DNA from: Candidatus Collierbacteria bacterium
GTDB taxonomy: Bacteria > Patescibacteriota > Microgenomatia > UBA1400 > JACPES01
NCBI GenBank assembly: GCA_016183365.1
Contig: JACPES010000003.1
Span: 539,154-588,265, forward strand
DNA: 49,112 bases
Direction of reading: 5' to 3'
Position numbers and translations under genes: made by a program. This document shows positions 2,824-42,143 of this stretch, piece by piece. The notes under the pieces are model-generated. The model was not told the DNA's origin, did not search any database, and was given only the letters and a program-made list of their open reading frames with translations. Position 1 is the first letter of the stretch. Each line of letters begins with the position of its first letter.

Positions 2824-3826
2824 ATTTATTAAAGAATTTAAGATCGGTTTTAACCACTGAATTCCAACCGGGAGTTAAGTTGTGGTCGGCTCCGGGATAT
2901 TGATATAGAACCGCTTGTTTATTCAATGATTGCAAAGTTTTAATAAGATCCATAGACCATTCCCACGGTACCGCTTCATCGCCAGTGCCTTGGTGAACGA
3001 TCAACGGAGTTTCAATCCGATCCAGGTAATTGGTTACGGAAAATAGCTCCGGGTCGTAGACGGATTCAAATTCAGAAATAGATTTTCGCAAATACTTTCC
3101 ATGGTCGTCACTGTCGCCGGTATAGTACAGAATGGAATAAGGAAACGGTTTGGACACCGGAGCCCAAAACGAAGCCGCTTTAATTCTGTTGCTAACGGTT
3201 AAAACCGATAAGCCGATTTGGCCGCCATTGGAATGCCCCCACAAAAATATGTTTTCAGTATCAGCCATGGGTAGGTTAGAGATGGAAGCTAATAACTGCA
3301 AGACAGTAGCCGGTTTAATCAAACGGGACTCAATCTCGTTTTGAGGTTCGGGATCTGAACTGCCGAAGCCTAAAAAATCCGGAGCCAGGGTTAAAAATCC
3401 GTTATCGGCGAATACCTCTGCCGCTTTTTTAGTTCCGATACCCGGCATGTAAGCTTCCTTATCGACATATCCCCGCAACATTATTATTACCGGACATTTT
3501 GATTTAAAAGAAGACAAAGCGCAGCCAGCCGAAATATTGGCGGTTCCGCTTACTCGGCCTTCCCGGGTTTCAAAATCAAATAACCAACCGGAGTGTTTTT
3601 CTCCTGAATTGATTTCTTGCGACAGATCAATAGTTTTTGGCGTAAAATTAGACTGGTTTAGATTGTCAAACGAATATTTAAGCAAAGGTTTTGGAATCAC
3701 GGTTGGTTCCGGGGATAAAGGCGACAGCATCGCGGGAGATGATTTTAGCAACCAATATTGTTGGGTTATTCCACCGGTTAGCATGCCAACGATAAAAATT
3801 GCTGTTAATAAAATATAGAATTTCAT
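2801..3826 (-). CDS. membrane-anchored or secreted alpha/beta hydrolase (S9 / dienelactone-hydrolase-like)
   Basis: Nucleophile elbow GHSNGG, later HQGTGDEAVP and GADHNL (a Ser-Asp-His arrangement). The preferred start is Met44 (MKFYILLTAIFIVGML, hydrophobic N-terminus), because the first 43 codons of the listed ORF translate a hairpin repeat. Confidence 0.7.
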   Translation of the reverse strand: MKFYILLTAIFIVGMLTGGITQQYWLLKSSPAMLSPLSPEPTVIPKPLLKYSFDNLNQSNFTPKTIDLSQEINSGEKHSGWLFDFETREGRVSGTANISAGCALSSFKSKCPVIIMLRGYVDKEAYMPGIGTKKAAEVFADNGFLTLAPDFLGFGSSDPEPQNEIESRLIKPATVLQLLASISNLPMADTENIFLWGHSNGGQIGLSVLTVSNRIKAASFWAPVSKPFPYSILYYTGDSDDHGKYLRKSISEFESVYDPELFSVTNYLDRIETPLIVHQGTGDEAVPWEWSMDLIKTLQSLNKQAVLYQYPGADHNLTPGWNSVVKTDLKFFNKFISPSRP

Positions 3827-3880
3827 TTTGTCCTTCAAGAATCGAGTATACAGAGATTGATGAATAAGTAAACTTTTCTT

Positions 3881-3953
3881 TGTCATTCCTTTCGTAAGCA
3901 GGAATCTGTTCAAATAATTATTGGAATAGATTCCTGTTTTCACGGGAATGACC
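3881..3953. repeat. inverted pair of TGTCATTCC-N10-12-GGAATCT hairpin modules
   Basis: 3881-3907 is tgtcattcctttcgtaagcaggaatct. 3928-3952 is its inverted copy (reverse complement gtcattcccgtgaaaacaggaatct). An AT-rich spacer lies between them. Confidence 0.85.
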
Positions 3954-4012
3954 ATTGATTGCTAAAGTTTTGGCATTTGAACTTTGGACTTCAATAAGGT
4001 ATCCTAAATATA

Positions 4013-6328
4013 ATGCCTGATAAACTTCCGTTGGTTATTGATTTTAAGAAAGTAGATAAAGGCGATATTCTGTTGGTGGGAGGCAAGGGTTCCAATTTGG
4101 GAGAAATGACTAAAGCCGGATTTCCGGTCCCGCCCGGATTTGTGGTAACTTCAGAATCCTATTGGAAGTTTTTAGAGGAAAATCATTTAAGAAATAAAAT
4201 CTCCGATTTATTAAAGGGACTCGACGTTCACCGTTCCGACGAGCTGACCCGGATCAGCCACCAGATAAAAGATATGATCGTCCATGGTTCTATTCCAGAA
4301 GATATTTCTGAAAAAATAATTAAGTCTTATTTAGAATTGGGAAATAAAACTTTGGTGGCTGTCAGGTCTTCGGCGACGGCGGAAGATCTGCCTGACGCCA
4401 GTTTTGCCGGCCAACAGGACACTTTTTTAAACATAGTCGGCGAATCGAATGTCGTCGATTATGTCAGAAAAGCCTGGGCCAGTTTGTTTACTCCGCGAGC
4501 TATTTTTTATCGGGAGCAAAAGAAATTTGATCATTTTAAAGTCGGGATAGCGGTCCCGATTCAGAAAATGATCCAATCGGAAGTTTCCGGAGTTATGTTT
4601 ACCGTTAATCCGGTTAATCAGGATAAATCGGTAATTATAATCGAGGCCGTATTGGGATTAGGAGAAATGATTGTTCAGGGATCGGTAACACCTGATCATT
4701 ATGAAGTTTTAAAAAGAAATCTGGAAATTTCAAAAAAAACCATTAACCGTCAGACCAGGATAATGGTTAAAAATATCAAAGATCATCTGGCTGAAAATGA
4801 AGTCAGAATTTTGCCGATATGGAAGCAAAAATCTCAAAAGTTATCGGATAAATATGTAGTGGAGGCGGCTAAATTGGGAATGGCTTTGTATCAACACTAT
4901 TTTTTCCCCCAAGACGTGGAGTGGGCTTTGGAGAAAGGAAAAATTTATATCATCCAAACCAGGCCGATCACCACTCTAGAGAATAAAATTTATTCGGAAG
5001 AAAGCGGAAAAATAGTTACTAAAGGTTTGACCAAGATTTTAACTGGCCAACCGGCCAGCCCGGGGCTAGTTTCCGGTCCGGTCAGGCTGATTAAATCAGT
5101 CAAAGAAATTCATAATGTCAAACCCGGAGATATTTTAGTGATGGAAATGACCAGCCCGGATTTTGTCCCGGCCATGCGGAAAGCGGTGGCAGTAGTAACT
5201 GATCAGGGCGGGCAGACTTCGCATGCCGCAATTGTCAGCCGGGAATTAGGAGTGGTTTGCGTGGTTGGAACTCAAATTGCCACTAAAAAGCTTAAAAACG
5301 GTTCGATAGTAACCGTAAACGGAACTAACGGGGAAGTATTTGCGGGGGCGTTTCAGAAAACTCCGACAGCCGGATCGTCCGATAGTCAGATTGTCAGACA
5401 GTCAGAATCTCCGAGTGTTCAGAGTGTTCCGAATTTTTCTAATTTTAAAACCGCCACTAAGGTTTACGTTAACCTGGCCGAACCGGAACTGGCCGAGAAA
5501 ATCGCGGCCGAAAACGTGGACGGGATCGGATTATTAAGAGCGGAGTTTATGATTGCCCAGATAGGAATTCATCCTAAAAAATTTATTCAGGACAAAAAAA
5601 CCGCTGAATTCGTTGATGCTTTGAAAACGGGCTTAACCAAATTCGCGCAGGCTTTTTATCCCCGGCCGGTGGTGTATCGGGCCACGGATTTCAGGACGAA
5701 TGAGTACCGGAATTTAAAAGGCGGGGACCGGTTTGAGCCGGTGGAGCCAAATCCGATGTTGGGTTTCAGGGGTGCGTCAAGATATATCGTCGATTCTGAA
5801 GTTTTTGAATTGGAGTTAAAGGCAATCCGCGAAGTCCGGGAAAAATTTAATAATCTTCATTTGATGATTCCGTTTGTCAGAAGTGTAAATGAACTGAAAG
5901 AAGTTAAAAAAATAGTTTACGGAATGAGTTTAAGGAGAAGTCAAAACTTTCAATTTTGGATGATGACAGAATTACCGGTTAATGTAATTTCAATTGACGA
6001 TTTTCTGGACGTCGGCATAGACGGTATTTCTATAGGAACCAATGATTTGACCATGCTGACATTGGGAACCGATCGGGATAACGAAAATGTGGCCAAGGAT
6101 TATGACGAGATGAATTCGGCGGTACTCTGGAGTTTAAAACGTTTGATTACCTCGGCCGCTAAAAGAGGCGTCACCAGTTCTATTTGCGGCCAGGCCCCAA
6201 GTATTTATCCGGAACTGGTAGAAGAATTGGTAAAATGGGGAATCACCAGTGTGTCAATTTCGCCCGATAGGATTAATACGACCAGAAAATTAATTTATGA
6301 AGCGGAGAGGAAAAATCTATGTCATTAA
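4013..6328 (+). CDS. ppsA: phosphoenolpyruvate synthase (pyruvate, water dikinase)
   Basis: 771 aa. N-terminal ATP-grasp region, phosphohistidine swivel motif GGQTSHAAIVSRELG, and a C-terminal PEP-utilising barrel with ICGQAPS. Confidence 0.85.
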   Translation: MPDKLPLVIDFKKVDKGDILLVGGKGSNLGEMTKAGFPVPPGFVVTSESYWKFLEENHLRNKISDLLKGLDVHRSDELTRISHQIKDMIVHGSIPEDISEKIIKSYLELGNKTLVAVRSSATAEDLPDASFAGQQDTFLNIVGESNVVDYVRKAWASLFTPRAIFYREQKKFDHFKVGIAVPIQKMIQSEVSGVMFTVNPVNQDKSVIIIEAVLGLGEMIVQGSVTPDHYEVLKRNLEISKKTINRQTRIMVKNIKDHLAENEVRILPIWKQKSQKLSDKYVVEAAKLGMALYQHYFFPQDVEWALEKGKIYIIQTRPITTLENKIYSEESGKIVTKGLTKILTGQPASPGLVSGPVRLIKSVKEIHNVKPGDILVMEMTSPDFVPAMRKAVAVVTDQGGQTSHAAIVSRELGVVCVVGTQIATKKLKNGSIVTVNGTNGEVFAGAFQKTPTAGSSDSQIVRQSESPSVQSVPNFSNFKTATKVYVNLAEPELAEKIAAENVDGIGLLRAEFMIAQIGIHPKKFIQDKKTAEFVDALKTGLTKFAQAFYPRPVVYRATDFRTNEYRNLKGGDRFEPVEPNPMLGFRGASRYIVDSEVFELELKAIREVREKFNNLHLMIPFVRSVNELKEVKKIVYGMSLRRSQNFQFWMMTELPVNVISIDDFLDVGIDGISIGTNDLTMLTLGTDRDNENVAKDYDEMNSAVLWSLKRLITSAAKRGVTSSICGQAPSIYPELVEELVKWGITSVSISPDRINTTRKLIYEAERKNLCH
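5350..5450 (+). repeat. in-frame low-complexity tract built from TCAGA/TCCGA 7-mer words inside ppsA
   Basis: The words ttcagaa ctccgac gtccgat gtcagat gtcagac gtcagaa ctccgag ttcagag ttccgaa encode the linker SSDSQIVRQSESPSVQSVPNFS. Confidence 0.7.
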
Positions 6329-12192: not shown

Positions 12193-13959
12193 ATGAAATC
12201 TGAAATATCCATTAAAGTCGGGGGGCCGGCGGGGGCTGGGGTTAAATCGGTCGGACAAATATTGGCTAAAACCTTGCAACGGTTGGGTTTCCATGTTTTT
12301 GAATATCCGGAATATCCAAGTTTGATCCGCGGCGGTCATAACACTGAACTTATTCAGGCTTTAGTTGAAAAAAAATATTCCCTGACAAAGCCGGTAGATT
12401 TGTTGATTGCTCTGGACGATAAAACTTTGAGCTTAGACCTACCGGAAGTAATTCCTGGCGGAATGGTGATTTTCGATTCTAAAATAGATTTTAAATCCAA
12501 TTCTTCCAAAATTAAGTTCTTATCTATCCCGATGTCCGATATAGCCTTGAAATTAGGCAATCCATTGACGGCTAACATAGTTGCAGTCGGTGCAGCTTTG
12601 AGGGTAATGGGGTCGACCACGGAAACAACTTCTAAGCTTTTGGCCGATCAGTTCTCGCAGAAGGGTCCCGACGTAATTTCTGCAAATATTAAATCCTTGG
12701 AAGCCGGCTGGAATTTCGTCAAGGACAAATCTTTCCACCCGATTTTAGATTTGATCTCCGACCTTCCGGCCAAAGGCCGATCCGCCTCTGGCGGAAAAGT
12801 TTCAAACGAATTAATGATGAACGGCAATGAAGCCTTATCTTCGGGAGCGATTTCGGCCGGAATGGGCCTATACACGGCCTATCCAATGACTCCTTCCACT
12901 CCGATTTTGCATTTTTTAGCGGCTCATCAAAACGAATTCGGATACATCTCGCTTCAAGCTGCGGATGAAATCACCTCGGTGAATATGGTGATTGGGGCGA
13001 TGCACATGGGCGTTAGAGCTATGTGTGGAACTTCAGGAGGCGGATTTGCTTTAATGAACGAATCCCTGGCTCTATCTGGAATGACCGAAACTCCGTTGGT
13101 ATTGGTTTTAGTCCAGCGTCCGGGGCCGGCCACCGGTTTACCGACCTGGACGGAACAAGGGGAATTGCAGTATGCCGTTCACGCCGCTCACGGTGAATTC
13201 CTGCGGTTTGTTTTAGCCCCGGGGGACATTGAGGAAACTTTTCAAATGGCTTTTGACGCTTTCAACTTAGCGGAAAGATACCAAACCCCTGTAATAATTA
13301 TGCTGGACAAATTTTTATCCGAATCATCCATGTCATCAGGAAATTTATCCTCTATCGGATTTAGCATAGACCGGGGAAAAATAACCGACCCTAAAAAATT
13401 AAACAGGGTGAAGAATTTTCAACGTTACCAATTGACGGCTGACGGAGTATCATCAAGAAGTTTACCCGGAATGGAAAACGGAATATTTTGCGCCAATTCA
13501 GATGAACATGAATACCATGGATTGGTGGATGAATCCAGTTCGATGAGAGTTTGGCAAGTTGATAAACGGTTAAAGAAAATGGAAACTGCTTCTAAAATGA
13601 TGCCGGGGCCGCAGTTAATCGGACCCAAAGACGCCAAAATTACCATCGTGACTTGGGGATCGGGTAAATTGCCGGCCCAGCAGGCGATGATGACAATGAA
13701 CAAGAAGCAAGAAACAGGAAACAATGAAAAAGTAAATTTGCTGCATTTTAGCTATATCTGGCCGATGAATGCTAATGCTATAAGGGAAGCGTTGAAAAAT
13801 TGCGCCACCTCGACATTATTAATCGAACAAAACGCCACTGGCCAATTTCAGTCCTTGTTAAAAGAACAAATAGGCTGGGAACCGACGGCATATTTGCGGA
13901 AGTATGACGGAAGGCCATTTTACGCGGAAGAAATAATAGAAAAAGTTGTTGAATTATGA
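12193..13959 (+). CDS. 2-oxoacid:ferredoxin oxidoreductase, fused gamma-alpha subunit
   Basis: Gamma-like N-terminus IKVGGPAGAGVKSVGQILAK, followed by alpha-type GNEALSSGAISAGMGLYTAYPMTPSTPIL. Confidence 0.8.
   Translation: MKSEISIKVGGPAGAGVKSVGQILAKTLQRLGFHVFEYPEYPSLIRGGHNTELIQALVEKKYSLTKPVDLLIALDDKTLSLDLPEVIPGGMVIFDSKIDFKSNSSKIKFLSIPMSDIALKLGNPLTANIVAVGAALRVMGSTTETTSKLLADQFSQKGPDVISANIKSLEAGWNFVKDKSFHPILDLISDLPAKGRSASGGKVSNELMMNGNEALSSGAISAGMGLYTAYPMTPSTPILHFLAAHQNEFGYISLQAADEITSVNMVIGAMHMGVRAMCGTSGGGFALMNESLALSGMTETPLVLVLVQRPGPATGLPTWTEQGELQYAVHAAHGEFLRFVLAPGDIEETFQMAFDAFNLAERYQTPVIIMLDKFLSESSMSSGNLSSIGFSIDRGKITDPKKLNRVKNFQRYQLTADGVSSRSLPGMENGIFCANSDEHEYHGLVDESSSMRVWQVDKRLKKMETASKMMPGPQLIGPKDAKITIVTWGSGKLPAQQAMMTMNKKQETGNNEKVNLLHFSYIWPMNANAIREALKNCATSTLLIEQNATGQFQSLLKEQIGWEPTAYLRKYDGRPFYAEEIIEKVVEL
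12766..12797 (+). repeat. in-frame double mini-hairpin (ggcc-aaa-ggcc, tccgcc-tct-ggcgga) at the gamma/alpha domain junction
   Basis: Encodes PAKGRSASGGK. Both hairpins were read directly at 12768-12778 and 12781-12795. Confidence 0.6.
13699..13732 (+). repeat. in-frame aacaagaa/caagaaacaggaa word tract (NKKQETG)
   Basis: aacaagaagcaagaaacaggaaacaa. A near-identical 24-mer lies in uvrB at 17056-17087. Confidence 0.75.
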
Positions 13960-30880: not shown

Positions 30881-31007
30881 CCTTTTTATGATTCATAGTT
30901 GATTGTTGTGCAGTTTATCCTGTAAAGCAGGATCCTGCTCTGCAGGACGAAACTTCACCATAATCTTCATTCTACGATGCCGATCGGCACTCTGGAATGA
31001 AAATCTA

Positions 31008-31763: not shown

Positions 31764-31927
31764 GGACTCAGCAAAAACGAATTGCGTTTTTTAATGGCGC
31801 AATCGGACAGTAAGACGCAATTCTTGCTGAGTCCACCGGTTGCGCCATTTAAATTGTATAAAAGTTCTTTGAAAATTTTTGCGTCACGCTGAGCGTGACA
31901 GTTGCCCCGCTAAGCGGGGCGTTTTTT
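31764..31927 (+). ncRNA. candidate ~165-nt structured sRNA (unassigned family)
   Basis: An 11-bp helix (31764-31774 with 31824-31834) and an 8-bp helix (31779-31786 with 31816-31823). A 10-nt loop segment aatggcgcaa (31793-31802) is complementary to ttgcgccatt (31840-31849). Two hairpins follow, the second a terminator. No ORF is present. Confidence 0.4.
31904..31927 (+). terminator. intrinsic terminator gccccgc-taa-gcggggc + T6
   Basis: A perfect 7-bp GC-rich stem followed by gtttttt. Confidence 0.75.
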
Positions 31928-32271: not shown

Positions 32272-32310
32272 GGCGCGCTCAGCGCGCCTCTAACCACGCT
32301 CAGCGTGGTT
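32272..32310 (-). terminator. two consecutive CGC-TGA-GCG hairpins downstream of tRNA-Gln (processing or termination structures)
   Basis: On the minus strand these read aaccacgc-tga-gcgtggtt (which includes the tRNA ACCA end) and ggcgcgc-tga-gcgcgcc. There is no clear T-run. Confidence 0.4.
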
Positions 32311-32379
32311 GGGAGACAGGGAATCGAACCCCGATTAGCGGATCCAAATTCCGCTGTCCTACCGTTAGACGATCTCCCA
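32306..32379 (-). tRNA. tRNA-Gln(TTG), CCA encoded
   Basis: Cloverleaf folded by hand. U1-A72 acceptor TGGGAGA/TCTCCCA, anticodon loop ATTTGGA, T-arm CGGGG-TTCGATT-CCCTG. Confidence 0.9.
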
Positions 32380-39544: not shown

Positions 39545-39889
39545 ATGAAGAAAAAACAGCCAAATCCTCAATTTTCAACTCCTTTCAATGATTATTTCAA
39601 ACTTTTTGATAAATATGATAAGAAAGTTAAGTATACGGAGGAGTACGGATCATTTTTAATCTTAAGCTTGGTAGAAGAAATCGGCGAAATGGCCCGGGCC
39701 TACTTGGCAAAGCACGGCCGGAAACAAACCAATCTGGCCGCCCAAGAGGATGAAACCTACGAGCAGGAATTAGGCGACATTTTGATCTCAATCCTGCGGT
39801 TTGCCCGGATAAAAAATATCAACCTCCACGAACGGGTCATGTATTCGTTGAAAAAGATTGAAAAGCGTCAGGACGAGCCGAAAAGATAA
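39545..39889 (+). CDS. MazG-like nucleotide pyrophosphohydrolase domain protein
   Basis: The EEIGEMARAY and ELGDILISILRFA helices, typical of the MazG/all-alpha NTP-PPase fold. Confidence 0.7.
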   Translation: MKKKQPNPQFSTPFNDYFKLFDKYDKKVKYTEEYGSFLILSLVEEIGEMARAYLAKHGRKQTNLAAQEDETYEQELGDILISILRFARIKNINLHERVMYSLKKIEKRQDEPKR

Positions 39890-39896
39890 CTTGATG

Positions 39897-39967
39897 AGCG
39901 GGTAAGGGGAATCGGACCCCTATATCCTGATTGGCAACCAGGCGTACTACCACTGTACTATACCCGC
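39897..39967 (-). tRNA. tRNA-Gly(GCC)
   Basis: GCGGGTA acceptor, anticodon loop TTGCCAA, T-arm AGGGG-TCCGATT-CCCCT. No encoded CCA. Confidence 0.9.
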
Positions 39968-40092
39968 AACGTAAAATTTTCTTCGAAAATTAACGTTGTT
40001 GAAGCGTTTAAATATTTTAATATTTATTACGCTTCGCACGCTAATTCGTAATTATACATTTATTAATCAATACGGTAAAATATGCTTAGCAT

Positions 40093-40179
40093 GGGCGGGT
40101 GGCGAAATTGGCAGACGCACAACTTTGAGGGGGTTGTGATCGCAAGATCGTGCAGGTTCAAGTCCTGTCCCGCCCACCA
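40093..40179 (+). tRNA. tRNA-Leu(GAG), long variable arm, CCA encoded
   Basis: GGGCGGG/CCCGCCC acceptor, anticodon loop TTGAGGG, variable arm gatc-gcaa-gatc, T-arm GCAGG-TTCAAGT-CCTGT. Confidence 0.9.
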
Positions 40180-40380
40180 AGGTTGGATAGGAGGTTTCCC
40201 GCAAAGCGGGATTCCGTGTATCGAGACGATTTTGCTAAAATCGCACGATACACGATAACAAGTCCTGTCCCGCCCACCAAGGTTGGATAGGAGGTTTCCC
40301 GCAAAGCGGGATTCCGTGTATCGAGACGATTTTGCTAAAATCGCACGATACACGATAACAAGTCTTGTCCCGCCCACCAA
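40159..40380 (+). repeat. tandem repeat: 100-nt unit x 2 (identical) plus a 22-nt partial third unit; each unit starts with the last 21 nt of tRNA-Leu
   Basis: Units at 40159-40258 and 40259-40358 are identical by eye. 40359-40380 repeats caagtcTtgtcccgcccaccaa with one change. Each unit contains the hairpins tcccgc-aaa-gcggga and cgtgtatcg..cgatacacg. Confidence 0.95.
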
Positions 40381-40386
40381 TAGTTG

Positions 40387-41012
40387 ATGATACTAACAAG
40401 AGATGAATGCTTGGCAGAGTTGATAGGAATTATCTTGGGTGATGGTAATCTCGGATTTTACCCTAGATATCCAAAAAAAAGTTCTAAAAATCCGTTGCCA
40501 TTATTTAAGAATTTATTGTTTTCTTAATGAGGAACAATACGCTAATGAAATAGAATTTATATTAAAAAAAGTATTTAAAAAGCAATGTTATATTTACAAA
40601 CGACCATCAGAAAATGTTTTGTACCTTGAAATATCTTTGAAGTCGCTCGATACATTGTTGGGTTTATCTATTGGCGATAAGATAAAAAATAAAGTAGAAA
40701 TTCCAAATTGGATTTTCAATCACAAAAAATATTTATTATCTTGTATCCGGGGATTATTCGATACCGATGGATGCTGTTACTTGACAAAAAAAATATCGAA
40801 TTGTTAATTTTACGAGCGCAAATCCAGCTTTGCTAAAAAACATACGGTCAGGTTTAGTGCTTTTGGGTTTTCACCCTTATATTAAAGGAGAAAAATATGT
40901 CGAAATTTGTCGACAAAATGAGGTAACAATGTTTTTTGATAAGATAAAGCCCAGAAATAGAAAACATTATCGTCATGCCGGAGTAGCCAACTTGGTGACG
41001 GCGCGTGTCTGA
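40387..41012 (+). pseudogene. LAGLIDADG homing endonuclease, split over three frames by two A8 runs
   Basis: Frame 1 gives LAELIGIILGDGNLGFYPRYPKK (motif 1). After A8 at 40473-40480, frame 2 continues ...LLSCIRGLFDTDGCCYLTKK (motif 2). After A8 at 40786-40793, frame 3 gives YRIVNFTSANPALLKNIRSGLVLLGFHPYIKGE.... The last frame runs into tRNA-Phe. Confidence 0.75.
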
Positions 41013-41049
41013 AAAACACGAGATATAGGTCCGATTCCTATCTCCGGCA
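40977..41049 (+). tRNA. tRNA-Phe(GAA)
   Basis: GCCGGAG/CTCCGGC acceptor, anticodon arm CGTGT-CTGAAAA-ACACG, T-arm ATAGG-TCCGATT-CCTAT. Confidence 0.9.
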
Positions 41050-41068
41050 CAGAAAATGAACTCATATC

Positions 41069-41105
41069 GGATCTGTAGCTCAACGACAGAGCGTTCAGTT
41101 TACAC
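41069..41105 (+). pseudogene. 5'-half tRNA fragment resembling tRNA-Val(TAC)
   Basis: ggatctgtagctcaacgacagagcgttcagtttacac parallels the first ~37 nt of the intact tRNA-Val 50 nt downstream. It has no 3' anticodon-stem strand and no T-arm. Confidence 0.5.
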
Positions 41106-41120
41106 CAGCCCGACTAGAAT

Positions 41121-41194
41121 GGACTCGTAGCTCAGTTGGTTAGAGCATTCGGTTTACATCCGAAAGGCCAGAGGTTCGAGACCTCTCGAGTCCA
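41121..41194 (+). tRNA. tRNA-Val(TAC)
   Basis: GGACTCG/CGAGTCC acceptor, D-arm GCTC-AGTTGGTTA-GAGC, anticodon loop TTTACAT, T-arm AGAGG-TTCGAGA-CCTCT. Confidence 0.9.
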
Positions 41195-41249
41195 CAATGA
41201 GGAACGTTTAATTTCGAAGAAATTATTACATTCCACCAAACTTCTAACC

Positions 41250-41333
41250 AGCCCTGGTGCTGAAATTGGCAGACAGGCACGCTTCAGGAGCGTGTGTTCG
41301 TAAGAACGTGCGAGTTCAAATCTCGCCCAGGGC
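41250..41333 (+). tRNA. tRNA-Leu(CAG), long variable arm
   Basis: GCCCTGG/CCAGGGC acceptor, anticodon arm CACGC-TTCAGGA-GCGTG, variable arm gttcg-taa-gaac, T-loop TTCAAAT. Confidence 0.9.
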
Positions 41334-41342
41334 ACAAAACAA

Positions 41343-42143
41343 CTAAGGTTTTTTATTGTTGCCAGAGAAGCTAACCTCAAATTTTCTCAACAATAACAAG
41401 CCCATGATAACCATCGATCCCGAACTCGCCTGGGCCATGTTAAGTTCAATTCCGGACGGTAAATTCAATTGCCATACAAATTCCGCCGGCCTCAAAAAAT
41501 CCAACCAAAATCTTCCCACTCCATACCAAACTAGATAAAAACCGGTGAAACTTCTTTTTATCCATCCCAATTTGTTTGTTTTCTCCGCTAAAAACATCAA
41601 TCCAAATCCCAACAGCATCCACAACGCTTCATAAGCGAATAGGGGATGGAACCAACTGAATTGTTCATATCCTGACAAACGGTTTTTGGGTTCAATATAA
41701 ATTCCCCACGGCAAGTCAGTCGGCATTCCATAAACTTCCTGGTTGATAAAATTGCCGATTCGGCCGATGGCTTGTGCTAACGGCAAACCGAAAAAAGCTA
41801 TATCAACGAGATGCTGGAATGAATGTTTCAATCTGAAATTTGAAGTCTGAAATCTGAAATATAGCGCTAACCCAATAATTCCGCCGATCAGTCCGCCAAT
41901 GATGCCCAAGCCGCCATTCCAAACATAAAACGCGCTTATAGGATTAAGTGAATAAATTTCGTTCCACAAATCCAAAACATGATAGATTCTAGCGCCGATT
42001 AAACCGCTGATAAGCGCCCACCAGGCAACTTTCCAAATAACCTCCTCTCCAATTCTCCGCCTCTTAGCCAGCCACGTCGAAGCTTGCAGTGCCGCTAAAA
42101 TTCCAACCCCGATTATCAATCCGTACCAGTGAAGTCCGAACAT
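41343..42143 (-). CDS. lgt: prolipoprotein diacylglyceryl transferase
   Basis: N-terminal HWYGLIIGVGILAA and the conserved GRIGNFINQEVYG. It contains an in-frame word tract at 41829-41860 (RFQTSNFRLKH). Confidence 0.9.
   Translation of the reverse strand: MFGLHWYGLIIGVGILAALQASTWLAKRRRIGEEVIWKVAWWALISGLIGARIYHVLDLWNEIYSLNPISAFYVWNGGLGIIGGLIGGIIGLALYFRFQTSNFRLKHSFQHLVDIAFFGLPLAQAIGRIGNFINQEVYGMPTDLPWGIYIEPKNRLSGYEQFSWFHPLFAYEALWMLLGFGLMFLAEKTNKLGWIKRSFTGFYLVWYGVGRFWLDFLRPAEFVWQLNLPSGIELNMAQASSGSMVIMGLLLLRKFEVSFSGNNKKP

Follow-up and report, generated by a model that had tools for sequence, protein, structure and literature searches.

The window, which is the whole stretch of 49,112 nucleotides analysed here, is a bacterial segment of low GC content (about 37-48%) originating from groundwater metagenomes, and the closest named relatives of its proteins belong to lineages of the Candidate Phyla Radiation (CPR, Patescibacteria). 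Its tRNA gene cluster at 39.9-41.3 kb has the order Gly(-), Leu-GAG, Phe, Val, Leu-CAG. Between tRNA-Leu(GAG) and tRNA-Phe lie a tandem array of 100-nt units, each ending like the 3′ end of tRNA-Leu, and a gene of the LAGLIDADG homing endonuclease family; these two elements are the subject of the present analysis.

Tandem array of tRNA-Leu 3′ ends and anatomy of its unit

Tandem Repeats Finder placed the array at 40159-40380, with a period of 100, 2.2 copies and 99% matches. The 21-mer CAAGTCCTGTCCCGCCCACCA, which corresponds to the 3′ part of the T-loop of tRNA-Leu(GAG) through CCA, occurs at 40159, 40259 and 40359, against 0.01 matches expected in shuffled sequence, and its third copy carries one C>T change (40365). 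These repeats of the last 21-22 nt of tRNA-Leu(GAG) are separated by identical 79-nt spacers, and the complete 100-nt units, at 40159-40258 and 40259-40358, agree with each other at 100% identity. The spacing of the three ends, the single substitution in the third copy and the identity of the spacers had all been described in an earlier note made from the sequence alone, and are confirmed by the repeat and 21-mer searches. The array displays the hallmark of integrase-type insertion, a direct repeat of a tRNA 3′ end beginning in the T-loop, as well as that of amplification, identical units arranged head to tail with a short direct repeat at their boundaries. Identical units are more readily explained by amplification of a single unit than by several separate integrations. 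The suggestion of the earlier note that the duplicated ends are scars of insertion is retained in so far as it points to selfish-DNA activity at tRNA genes, and is less favoured as regards repeated insertion.

Each unit, taken as spacer plus tail, corresponds to a tRNA T-arm followed by the acceptor 3′ strand, with the T-loop split between T55 and C56. The insertion in the T-loop consists of a conserved hairpin A (TCCCGC-RAA-GCGGGA) and a second, covarying hairpin B. In unit 1, GGTTG (40181-40185) equals the anticodon-stem 3′ strand of tRNA-Leu(GAG), and the unit therefore resembles tRNA positions 40-87 with the variable arm deleted. It continues with the 5′ arm GGATAGGA/GGAGG (40185-40194), TT (40195-40196), hairpin A (TCCCGC-AAA-GCGGGA, 40197-40211), a hairpin B of the long class (40215-40254) and the tail CAAGT CCTGT CCCGCCC ACCA (40259-40279). 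The fold z-score of the window unit is -8, and no Rfam match for the unit was obtained either at the gathering threshold or at E≤10. An equation of hairpin B with the tRNA-Leu variable arm (ATCGCAAGAT vs ATCGCACGAT) was treated as chance because the two are not colinear, and readings of the module as a bulge-helix-bulge motif or a self-cleaving ribozyme were rejected by inspection and by the lack of an Rfam match.

The depth of the array was taken from Logan unitigs of four independent public runs (X1-X4), that is, from contigs and not from reads. The flanks, the unit-to-unit junction and the LAGLIDADG region are all reproduced in contigs of the four runs, the junction unitigs including 40235-40288 and its equivalents. 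Junction depth as compared to that of the single-copy flanks was 38-51 vs 7-8 in X1, 54 vs 11 in X2, 268-499 vs 23-33 in X3 and 101-132 vs 20 in X4, a ratio of roughly 1.4-15x that varies by run and by the counting of a second tRNA-Leu genome. In X1, X2 and X4 the tRNA-Leu contig of this second genome stops precisely at 40179 and may contribute to the same words. Correction for it suggests an array of ~2.4-5 units, with a higher number in X3, for which no correction is possible. As the junction depth lies above that of the flanks, the assembled copy number of 2.2 is to be read, from contigs only, as a lower bound.

Table 1. Positions of the features in the window
Feature	Position	Strand	Basis or remark
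Intact tRNA-Leu(GAG), encoded CCA	40093..40179	+	ARAGORN; Rfam tRNA 47.3 bits; 40159-40179 is repeat copy 1
Unit 1, putative 3′ relic of tRNA-Leu	40180..40279	+	repeat comparison, folding, covariance search
Unit 2, 79-nt body same as unit 1	40280..40379	+	repeat comparison; hairpin A 40297-40311, hairpin B 40315-40354, tail 40359-40379 with C>T
LAGLIDADG homing endonuclease pseudogene	40387..41012	+	motifs, Pfam match on read-through protein
tRNA-Phe(GAA), conserved anchor of the LAGLIDADG subfamily	40977..41050	+	program tRNA call and comparison across homologues
tRNA-Val(TAC) 5′ relic of older gene, up to anticodon loop	41069..41105	+	comparison with L002 899-971
Small GIY-YIG nuclease gene, 89 aa	31964..32233	-	72 nt downstream of tRNA-Gln (32306-32379, -)
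Second window copy of two-hairpin module, TCCTGT-AAA-GCAGGA + TCCTGC-TCT-GCAGGA	30914..30947	+	covariance model R1, 35.8 bits, E 2e-08
Module-like double hairpin in ORF 12193-13959, read in frame as ...LPAKGRSASGGK...	12764-12800		covariance model R1

Recurrence of the unit and split tRNA relics in CPR genomes

A search for the spacer elsewhere, as proposed in the earlier note, identified it as a conserved two-hairpin element in the T-loop of a dead tRNA piece, recurrent in CPR. Exact-pattern scans with the conserved hairpin, for which the patterns began with GGTT, gave hits in 3 GTDB genomes and 58 metagenome contigs. An intact same-strand tRNA ends ≤~115 nt upstream in 27 of the 56 distinct hits, with a gap of ≤55 nt in 23 of those 27, and the tRNAs concerned are Leu, Val, Cys, Pro, Ala, Ile, Lys and Thr. 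The tRNA-adjacent units have a constant layout, namely a 5-nt arm, TT, hairpin A, hairpin B, CRAnT and the complementary 5-nt arm, after which the unit ends in 8-9 nt resembling an acceptor 3′ strand with its discriminator. Hairpin B is either of a short class, TCNNGC-TYN-GCNNGA, which is 100% paired with 3 compensatory pairs, or of long classes with 9-12-bp stems and at least 6 unrelated sequences. These observations show the unit to be a recurrent tRNA-3′-end-like element with a conserved two-hairpin insertion.

Within a unit, both strands of the T-stem correspond to one another, and they often differ from those of the neighbouring tRNA. Acceptor identity of the units is 5.9/8 to the adjacent tRNA, 4.85 to the same isotype elsewhere and 3.35 to other isotypes (permutation p<1e-4). 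Tails that are like the adjacent tRNA, together with T-stems that usually are not, fit older alleles of that tRNA. The T-stem is decayed in several units (e.g. L048 vs L017), and L012 carries two non-identical units in tandem. A related unit is located 3′ of tRNA-Leu(CAG) in L001/L002, reading GGATAGG TT TCCCGCGAAGCGGGA TCCTGCTCTGCAGGA CAAAT CCTCT CCTCGGCAC, and the presence or absence of units at tRNA-Leu(GAG) and (CAG) differs between the window and L002. As for tRNA-Leu(CAG) itself, the two alleles are alike in the T-arm and different in all else.

All-against-all clustering of 488 neighbouring open reading frames (ORFs) over 35 loci gave synteny groups only, with no recurrent neighbour protein, integrase or transposase. 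A phage attP site carrying hairpin A was considered and rejected, the five viral-contig hits representing one unrelated high-GC coding sequence, plus one other. Hairpin A also occurs in a conserved coding-looking repeat (...GGGGTTTCCCGCAAAGCGGGATGTCGCTCCGCTCCAGAA...), the context of which is unlike that of the tRNA units, and about 17 metagenome hits in a conserved coding repeat were set aside on that ground. About a dozen or more of such hits come from the single metagenome Ga0247727 (L018, L023, L025, L029, L031, L033, L044, L056, L057, L065, L069 and L070).

The 30-nt two-hairpin module is present also in D-, anticodon- and T-loops of relics, in intergenic DNA and in ORF linkers, and L049 carries the same 30-mer in both orientations. 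The covariance model R1 was built from the unit and searched against the same contigs. The second module copy of the window is intergenic, with T-arm-like flanks (GTGCAG TT ... CGAAA CTTCAC) and no adjacent tRNA. The in-frame copy falls within the segment that links the POR domain to POR_N in a 2-oxoacid:ferredoxin oxidoreductase. Such apparently in-frame modules resemble Rickettsia palindromic elements. A similar in-frame copy was noted in a UvrD-like ORF of L034. The occurrence of several window copies in unrelated contexts (40197-40254 x2, 30914-30947 and 12764-12800) is a hallmark of palindromic elements; gain or loss of the module alone was not seen among the compared loci.

R1 located further modules ahead of the intact gene, within 5′ fragments of that same tRNA; their position is either the D-loop or directly behind G34 of the Cys anticodon. 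A GIY-YIG gene of 83-86 aa (Pfam E 1e-16 to 1e-18) separates the 5′ fragment from the intact tRNA. In L077 the 5′ relic, GACCGGATGG[module]CGAAGTG, and the 3′ relic, ...CTCCGGTCTCA, make up the two complementary halves of a single old tRNA-Cys, as evident from their complementary acceptor strands (GACCGG.../...CCGGTC), and are separated by the GIY-YIG gene and a new tRNA-Cys with a different acceptor. The same architecture is found for tRNA-Cys in L040, L049, L071, L078 and L081, the 5′ piece of L081 being nt 1-40 of the intact gene, and for tRNA-Leu(GAG) in L052, where the GIY-YIG gene is truncated. When five further loci were obtained by GIY-YIG homology alone, the gene preceded tRNA-Cys(GCA) in 5/5, either abutting it or at a distance of no more than about 100 nt; R1 module matches were nearby in 5/5 as well, strong in four and weaker in L081, which has an imperfect module, and relics were recognisable in L077, L078 and L081. 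The modules lie about 6-17 nt from the relic junctions in the loci examined. Split tRNA relics are shown by these loci to flank endonuclease and tRNA cassettes in many CPR genomes. A nested arrangement was also observed in L011 (about 4380-4800, -), where a tRNA-Lys between 17-bp inverted repeats lies within an older tRNA-Lys that has hairpin insertions, all different, in its D-loop, in its T-loop and in its acceptor strand.

The window itself contains related arrangements. Its GIY-YIG gene is flanked by pairs of GC-rich hairpins at 32272-32308 and 31883-31920. The upstream pair is CCACGC-TGA-GCGTGG / GCGCGC-TGA-GCGCGC, the first hairpin of which overlaps the CCA end of tRNA-Gln, and the downstream pair is GCCCCGC-TTA-GCGGGGC / GTCACGC-TCA-GCGTGAC. 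This gene, with tRNA-Gln and the hairpins, is a local example of the association of endonuclease, tRNA and hairpins. At tRNA-Leu(GAG) the hallmark of the cassettes is present in that a 3′ relic of the same tRNA type lies just downstream of the intact tRNA. Furthermore, 15 nt past the tRNA-Val 5′ relic follows a different, intact tRNA-Val(TAC) (41121-41195), which shows the overwrite phenomenon inside the array's own cluster. The relic is orthologous to the intact tRNA-Val of the relative L002.

Another hairpin, whose 6-bp stem covaries and whose AT-rich loop, GTTTAA(A)T...TTATTAC, is conserved, brackets the tRNA cluster at 39999-40040 and 41200-41235 (2 window matches vs 0.04 expected). This hairpin is found 3′ of units elsewhere (L022 4738-4759; L064 806-827), and may be a promoter, a terminator or a protein-binding site.

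The LAGLIDADG gene at the 5′ edge of tRNA-Phe

The LAGLIDADG ORF begins with the ATG at 40387, 7 nt past the third repeat copy, and its last frame ends at a stop codon (41010-41012) inside tRNA-Phe that coincides with T33-G34-A35 of the anticodon loop, so that the last 36 nt of the gene and the stop codon fall within the tRNA; the distance of 7 nt and the run of the last frame into tRNA-Phe are as given in the earlier note. The two motifs, LIGIILGDGNL and LRGLFDTDGCC, are kept, and the read-through protein matches Pfam LAGLIDADG_3 (E 1.5e-08). About 150 homologues of roughly 200 aa were found, and G17, D18 and G19 as well as D127 and G128 are invariant in 30 of them. The AlphaFold2 (AF2) model of the intact homologue P0001 (pLDDT 91.2, pTM 0.87) is a monomeric double alpha-beta-beta-alpha-beta-beta-alpha fold, for which Foldseek returned PI-PfuI (E 2.6e-10), I-Tsp061I (TM 0.68/0.69) and I-DmoI. 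No sequence match of the endonuclease to PDB was found, and the kinship is one of fold comparison. No group I intron core was detected with Rfam, either at the gathering threshold, which returned tRNAs only, or over 39850-41400 at E≤10, in agreement with the placement of the gene outside any such intron by the earlier note.

Two 2-nt deletions, both in A-runs (about 40473-40480 and 40786-40793), distribute the gene over three frames, as judged against the intact homologue of L001-L003 (88% identical protein, 90% DNA). A 952-nt contig is identical in X1-X3, a shorter X4 contig covers the gene without differences, and relatives in other runs carry the missing AC. Homopolymer sequencing error was rejected as the cause of the frameshifts, the lesions being 2-nt deletions relative to L002 and other ORFs with A8/T8 runs being intact. 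The agreement of the four runs, the intact A8-run ORFs and the AC of the relatives therefore identify a real pseudogene. The assignment to LAGLIDADG homing endonucleases in the earlier note stands as to family, by motifs, Pfam and the fold of the homologue; the copy in the window is not intact.

Gene order in L001-L003 is as in the window, and the intact endonuclease gene starts there directly after the CCA of tRNA-Leu(GAG), with no array; an 883-nt contig of X11 displays the same arrangement. Homologues at a greater distance (62-64% identity) are preceded by tRNA-Ile or a sortase gene, and their ORFs still end inside tRNA-Phe(GAA). Many C-termini of the family translate the 5′ half of tRNA-Phe (e.g. 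...AGVANLVTARV and ...ARIAKVVKASV), residues which are disordered in the P0001 model, and many CPR genomes have a member of the subfamily at the 5′ border of tRNA-Phe(GAA). An empty site, for which the earlier note had suggested a comparison of relatives, is present in a 171-nt contig of X11 from a more divergent relative, in which the tRNA-Leu 3′ end, 23 nt and tRNA-Phe are joined; the occupied alleles are those of the window, L001-L003 and the 883-nt contig. No tRNA-Phe relics surround the LAGLIDADG genes of the window, L002, L004 or L005. Anchoring at tRNA-Phe and the array-free relatives thus point to a free-standing putative homing endonuclease docked at tRNA-Phe, independent of the array. 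The LAGLIDADG gene is shown to be separable from the array and broken. The link between array and endonuclease drawn in the earlier note is argued against by these relatives with an intact enzyme, by the tRNA-Phe anchoring and by about 27 unit loci that have no LAGLIDADG gene.

In the intact relatives the ATG abuts the CCA of tRNA-Leu (L001 2988-2991 / L002 215-218). With the ATG abutting the CCA and the stop codon inside tRNA-Phe, tRNA processing would give a leaderless mRNA, and the RNase P cut would remove the stop; tRNA processing could in this way limit LAGLIDADG expression. In L004 an HNH endonuclease gene (3725-4090, Pfam E 1e-05) was observed directly after tRNA-Phe, with a LAGLIDADG gene before that same tRNA-Phe.

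Origin of the array and comparison with known systems

The explanation favoured here, with moderate confidence, is that the array arose by tandem amplification of a single dead 3′ relic of tRNA-Leu carrying the two-hairpin element, and that the LAGLIDADG gene is independent of it. The relic would extend from the 3′ strand of the anticodon stem as far as CCA, would lack the variable arm and would hold a palindromic element of ~60 nt between T55 and C56. In CPR, incoming copies would overwrite tRNA genes time and again. Where preservation is best, what arrives appears to be a cassette, with a free-standing gene for a homing-type endonuclease ahead of an intact tRNA; the resident tRNA gene would be split, and the 3′ portion of it would remain immediately behind the new tRNA. 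The small palindromic element would then occupy loops of the dead pieces, a step of which the resulting pattern is seen in the loci above. The window unit probably arose as such a relic, and the 21-22-nt identity of its tail with the true tRNA end would allow unequal crossing-over or replication slippage to expand the array. The same recombination could contract the array or delete it precisely, leaving array-free relatives. The LAGLIDADG gene is a second, independent selfish element, of a subfamily inserted immediately 5′ of tRNA-Phe(GAA), and is decaying here.

Several points weigh against this explanation. Neither a 5′ relic nor an endonuclease gene is present upstream of tRNA-Leu(GAG) in 39968-40092, and the overwrite step is therefore assumed at this tRNA by analogy, not seen. 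The 5′ arm GGATAGG is common to the window unit (GAG) and the L002 unit after tRNA-Leu(CAG), with tails that match the local tRNAs; a shared arm with local tails suggests block movement or conversion of the unit, which a purely in-situ relic does not predict. The GGTT of the search patterns favours T-loops, so that the apparent T-loop specificity is partly an ascertainment effect. Copy number and heterogeneity, moreover, rest on contigs, not on read-level data.

An alternative regarded as unlikely, if still worth consideration, is that a self-contained mini-element (79 nt plus the tRNA 3′ end) enters the T-loop of tRNA-Leu through site-specific or microhomology recombination and regenerates the end, each unit being one integration; this corresponds to the second option named in the earlier note. 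The repeat does begin in the T-loop, a classical integrase crossover site, and the tails equal the end of the tRNA. Units located 3′ of two separate tRNA-Leu genes in close relatives share GGATAGG and hairpin A and carry the local tail, the tandem units of L012 are non-identical, and the modules keep their distance of about 6-17 nt from the relic junctions. However, no integrase, transposase or recurrent neighbour was found over the 35 loci, nor any phage attP-like copy. At least 8 loci (L040, L071, L017, L047, L037, L012 among them) have their own matched T-stem that differs from the adjacent tRNA, unlike a chimeric attR. The existence of 5′ relics and split halves (L077) also counts against such an element, and a 100-bp double-stranded circle is physically implausible.

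That cleavage by the neighbouring LAGLIDADG enzyme made the duplications, through repeated homing or through break-induced segmental amplification as for SegB of T4/T6, is improbable. The array directly abuts the endonuclease gene, and SegB, located in a tRNA cluster, drives tandem amplification via microhomology (PMC13096335; PMC2330249). Relatives with an intact enzyme nevertheless have no array, the enzyme is broken here, and the amplified unit holds neither an endonuclease gene nor a full tRNA. The unit loci lacking LAGLIDADG, about 27 in number, argue in the same direction, as does the subfamily, which tracks tRNA-Phe and not tRNA-Leu.

Slightly less probable again is a functional structured RNA, a co-transcribed tRNA-like 3′ trailer serving processing, stability or as a decoy and amplified for dosage. 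The position just downstream of a tRNA and always on the same strand, the conservation of hairpin A across distant CPR lineages, the covariation of hairpin B and the strength of the fold agree with such a role. The occurrence of modules in either orientation, within ORFs and in 5′ relics that precede genes does not, nor do the decay of T-stems in several units (L048 vs L017), the differing presence of units between close relatives and the absence of an Rfam match. An assembly artefact, in which a mis-resolved de Bruijn cycle mimics a tandem array, can be all but dismissed: the 221-nt repeat exceeds typical short reads and the assembler output equals the minimal traversal of a cycle, but junction unitigs occur in four independent runs at a depth above the flanks, and diverged copies occur in runs of other studies.

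The favoured explanation, amplification of a dead tRNA relic, can be compared with several known systems. Integrase attachment sites in tRNA genes, as reportedly surveyed by Williams in 2002, are said to carry a duplicated 3′ end that starts in the T-loop or the anticodon loop. The array shares with them the direct repeat of a tRNA 3′ end from the T-loop and the insertion sublocations (T-loop, anticodon loop); it differs in that only 79 nt separate the repeats, no integrase is present, the hairpins lie inside a complete T-arm and 5′ relics exist. In the mitochondrial atp6 gene of Allomyces, Paquin et al. are said to have described in 1994 a mobile endonuclease ORF that brings a replacement gene part and displaces the resident one. 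Likewise, the cassettes disrupt an essential gene, bring a functional copy and leave a displaced pseudo-copy. In their case, however, the target is a tRNA gene, a whole tRNA (or its 5′ 40 nt, L081) is supplied and the hosts are bacterial chromosomes.

Palindromic elements of Rickettsia were reportedly described by Ogata in 2000. Mitochondrial double-hairpin elements and GC clusters are likewise small palindromic mobile elements (PMC2800124). The two-hairpin module resembles both in its size of about 30-75 nt, its 1-2 hairpins, its occurrence in both orientations and its lack of an encoded enzyme, as well as in its intergenic location, its presence in RNA genes and its apparently in-frame presence in protein genes. 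It is distinguished by its family sequence (TCNNGC-RRA-GCNNGA + TCNNGC-TYY-GCNNGA), its association with loops of dead tRNAs in CPR and its apparently low copy number.

SegB of T4/T6 is a free-standing GIY-YIG homing endonuclease in a phage tRNA gene cluster (PMC2330249; PMC13096335). The CPR loci have in common with it a free-standing endonuclease gene between tRNA genes and a tRNA region that is preferentially inherited or rearranged, and short-homology tandem amplification is documented for SegB. Unlike the phage system, they belong to CPR cells and combine a LAGLIDADG gene by tRNA-Phe with minimal GIY-YIG genes of 83-89 aa, split tRNA relics and a gene-free amplified unit. LAGLIDADG enzymes are also known from rRNA insertions of CPR, e.g. 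I-ShaI (PMC11270868). Hosts and family are the same, and the best structural matches of P0001 are archaeal rRNA-intron and intein enzymes; the window gene, in contrast to I-ShaI, is in neither an intron nor an rRNA gene, fills the spacer between two tRNAs and reads into tRNA-Phe. No description of these units or of the arrangement of GIY-YIG with tRNA-Cys was found in full-text searches of the literature.

Taken together, these patterns suggest that CPR tRNA genes are repeatedly overwritten and that their dead pieces are colonised by a small palindromic element. A wider and rather speculative proposal is that CPR tRNA genes might be homing sites for an undescribed cassette of a minimal endonuclease and a replacement tRNA, in which the relic halves would act as homology arms, the palindromes as cis-acting sites, and the array would be an amplified arm. 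The palindromes might then be, for instance, cruciform substrates of a domain-only GIY-YIG nuclease or initiators of recombination. Such a cassette would need no splicing, because it supplies its own functional tRNA copy, and homing would be intron-free, with a replacement gene copy in place of splicing. If this proposal holds, the old tRNA halves would serve as universal homology arms for the next transfer. Genes for tRNAs are among the most conserved sequences across species, and anything that lands there can move between distant genomes. For annotation, pseudo-tRNA ends and 30-nt ORF insertions need to be recognised, and for assembly, collapsed arrays at tRNA clusters can escape notice. The overwriting of tRNA genes would also bear on how genes move between streamlined genomes.

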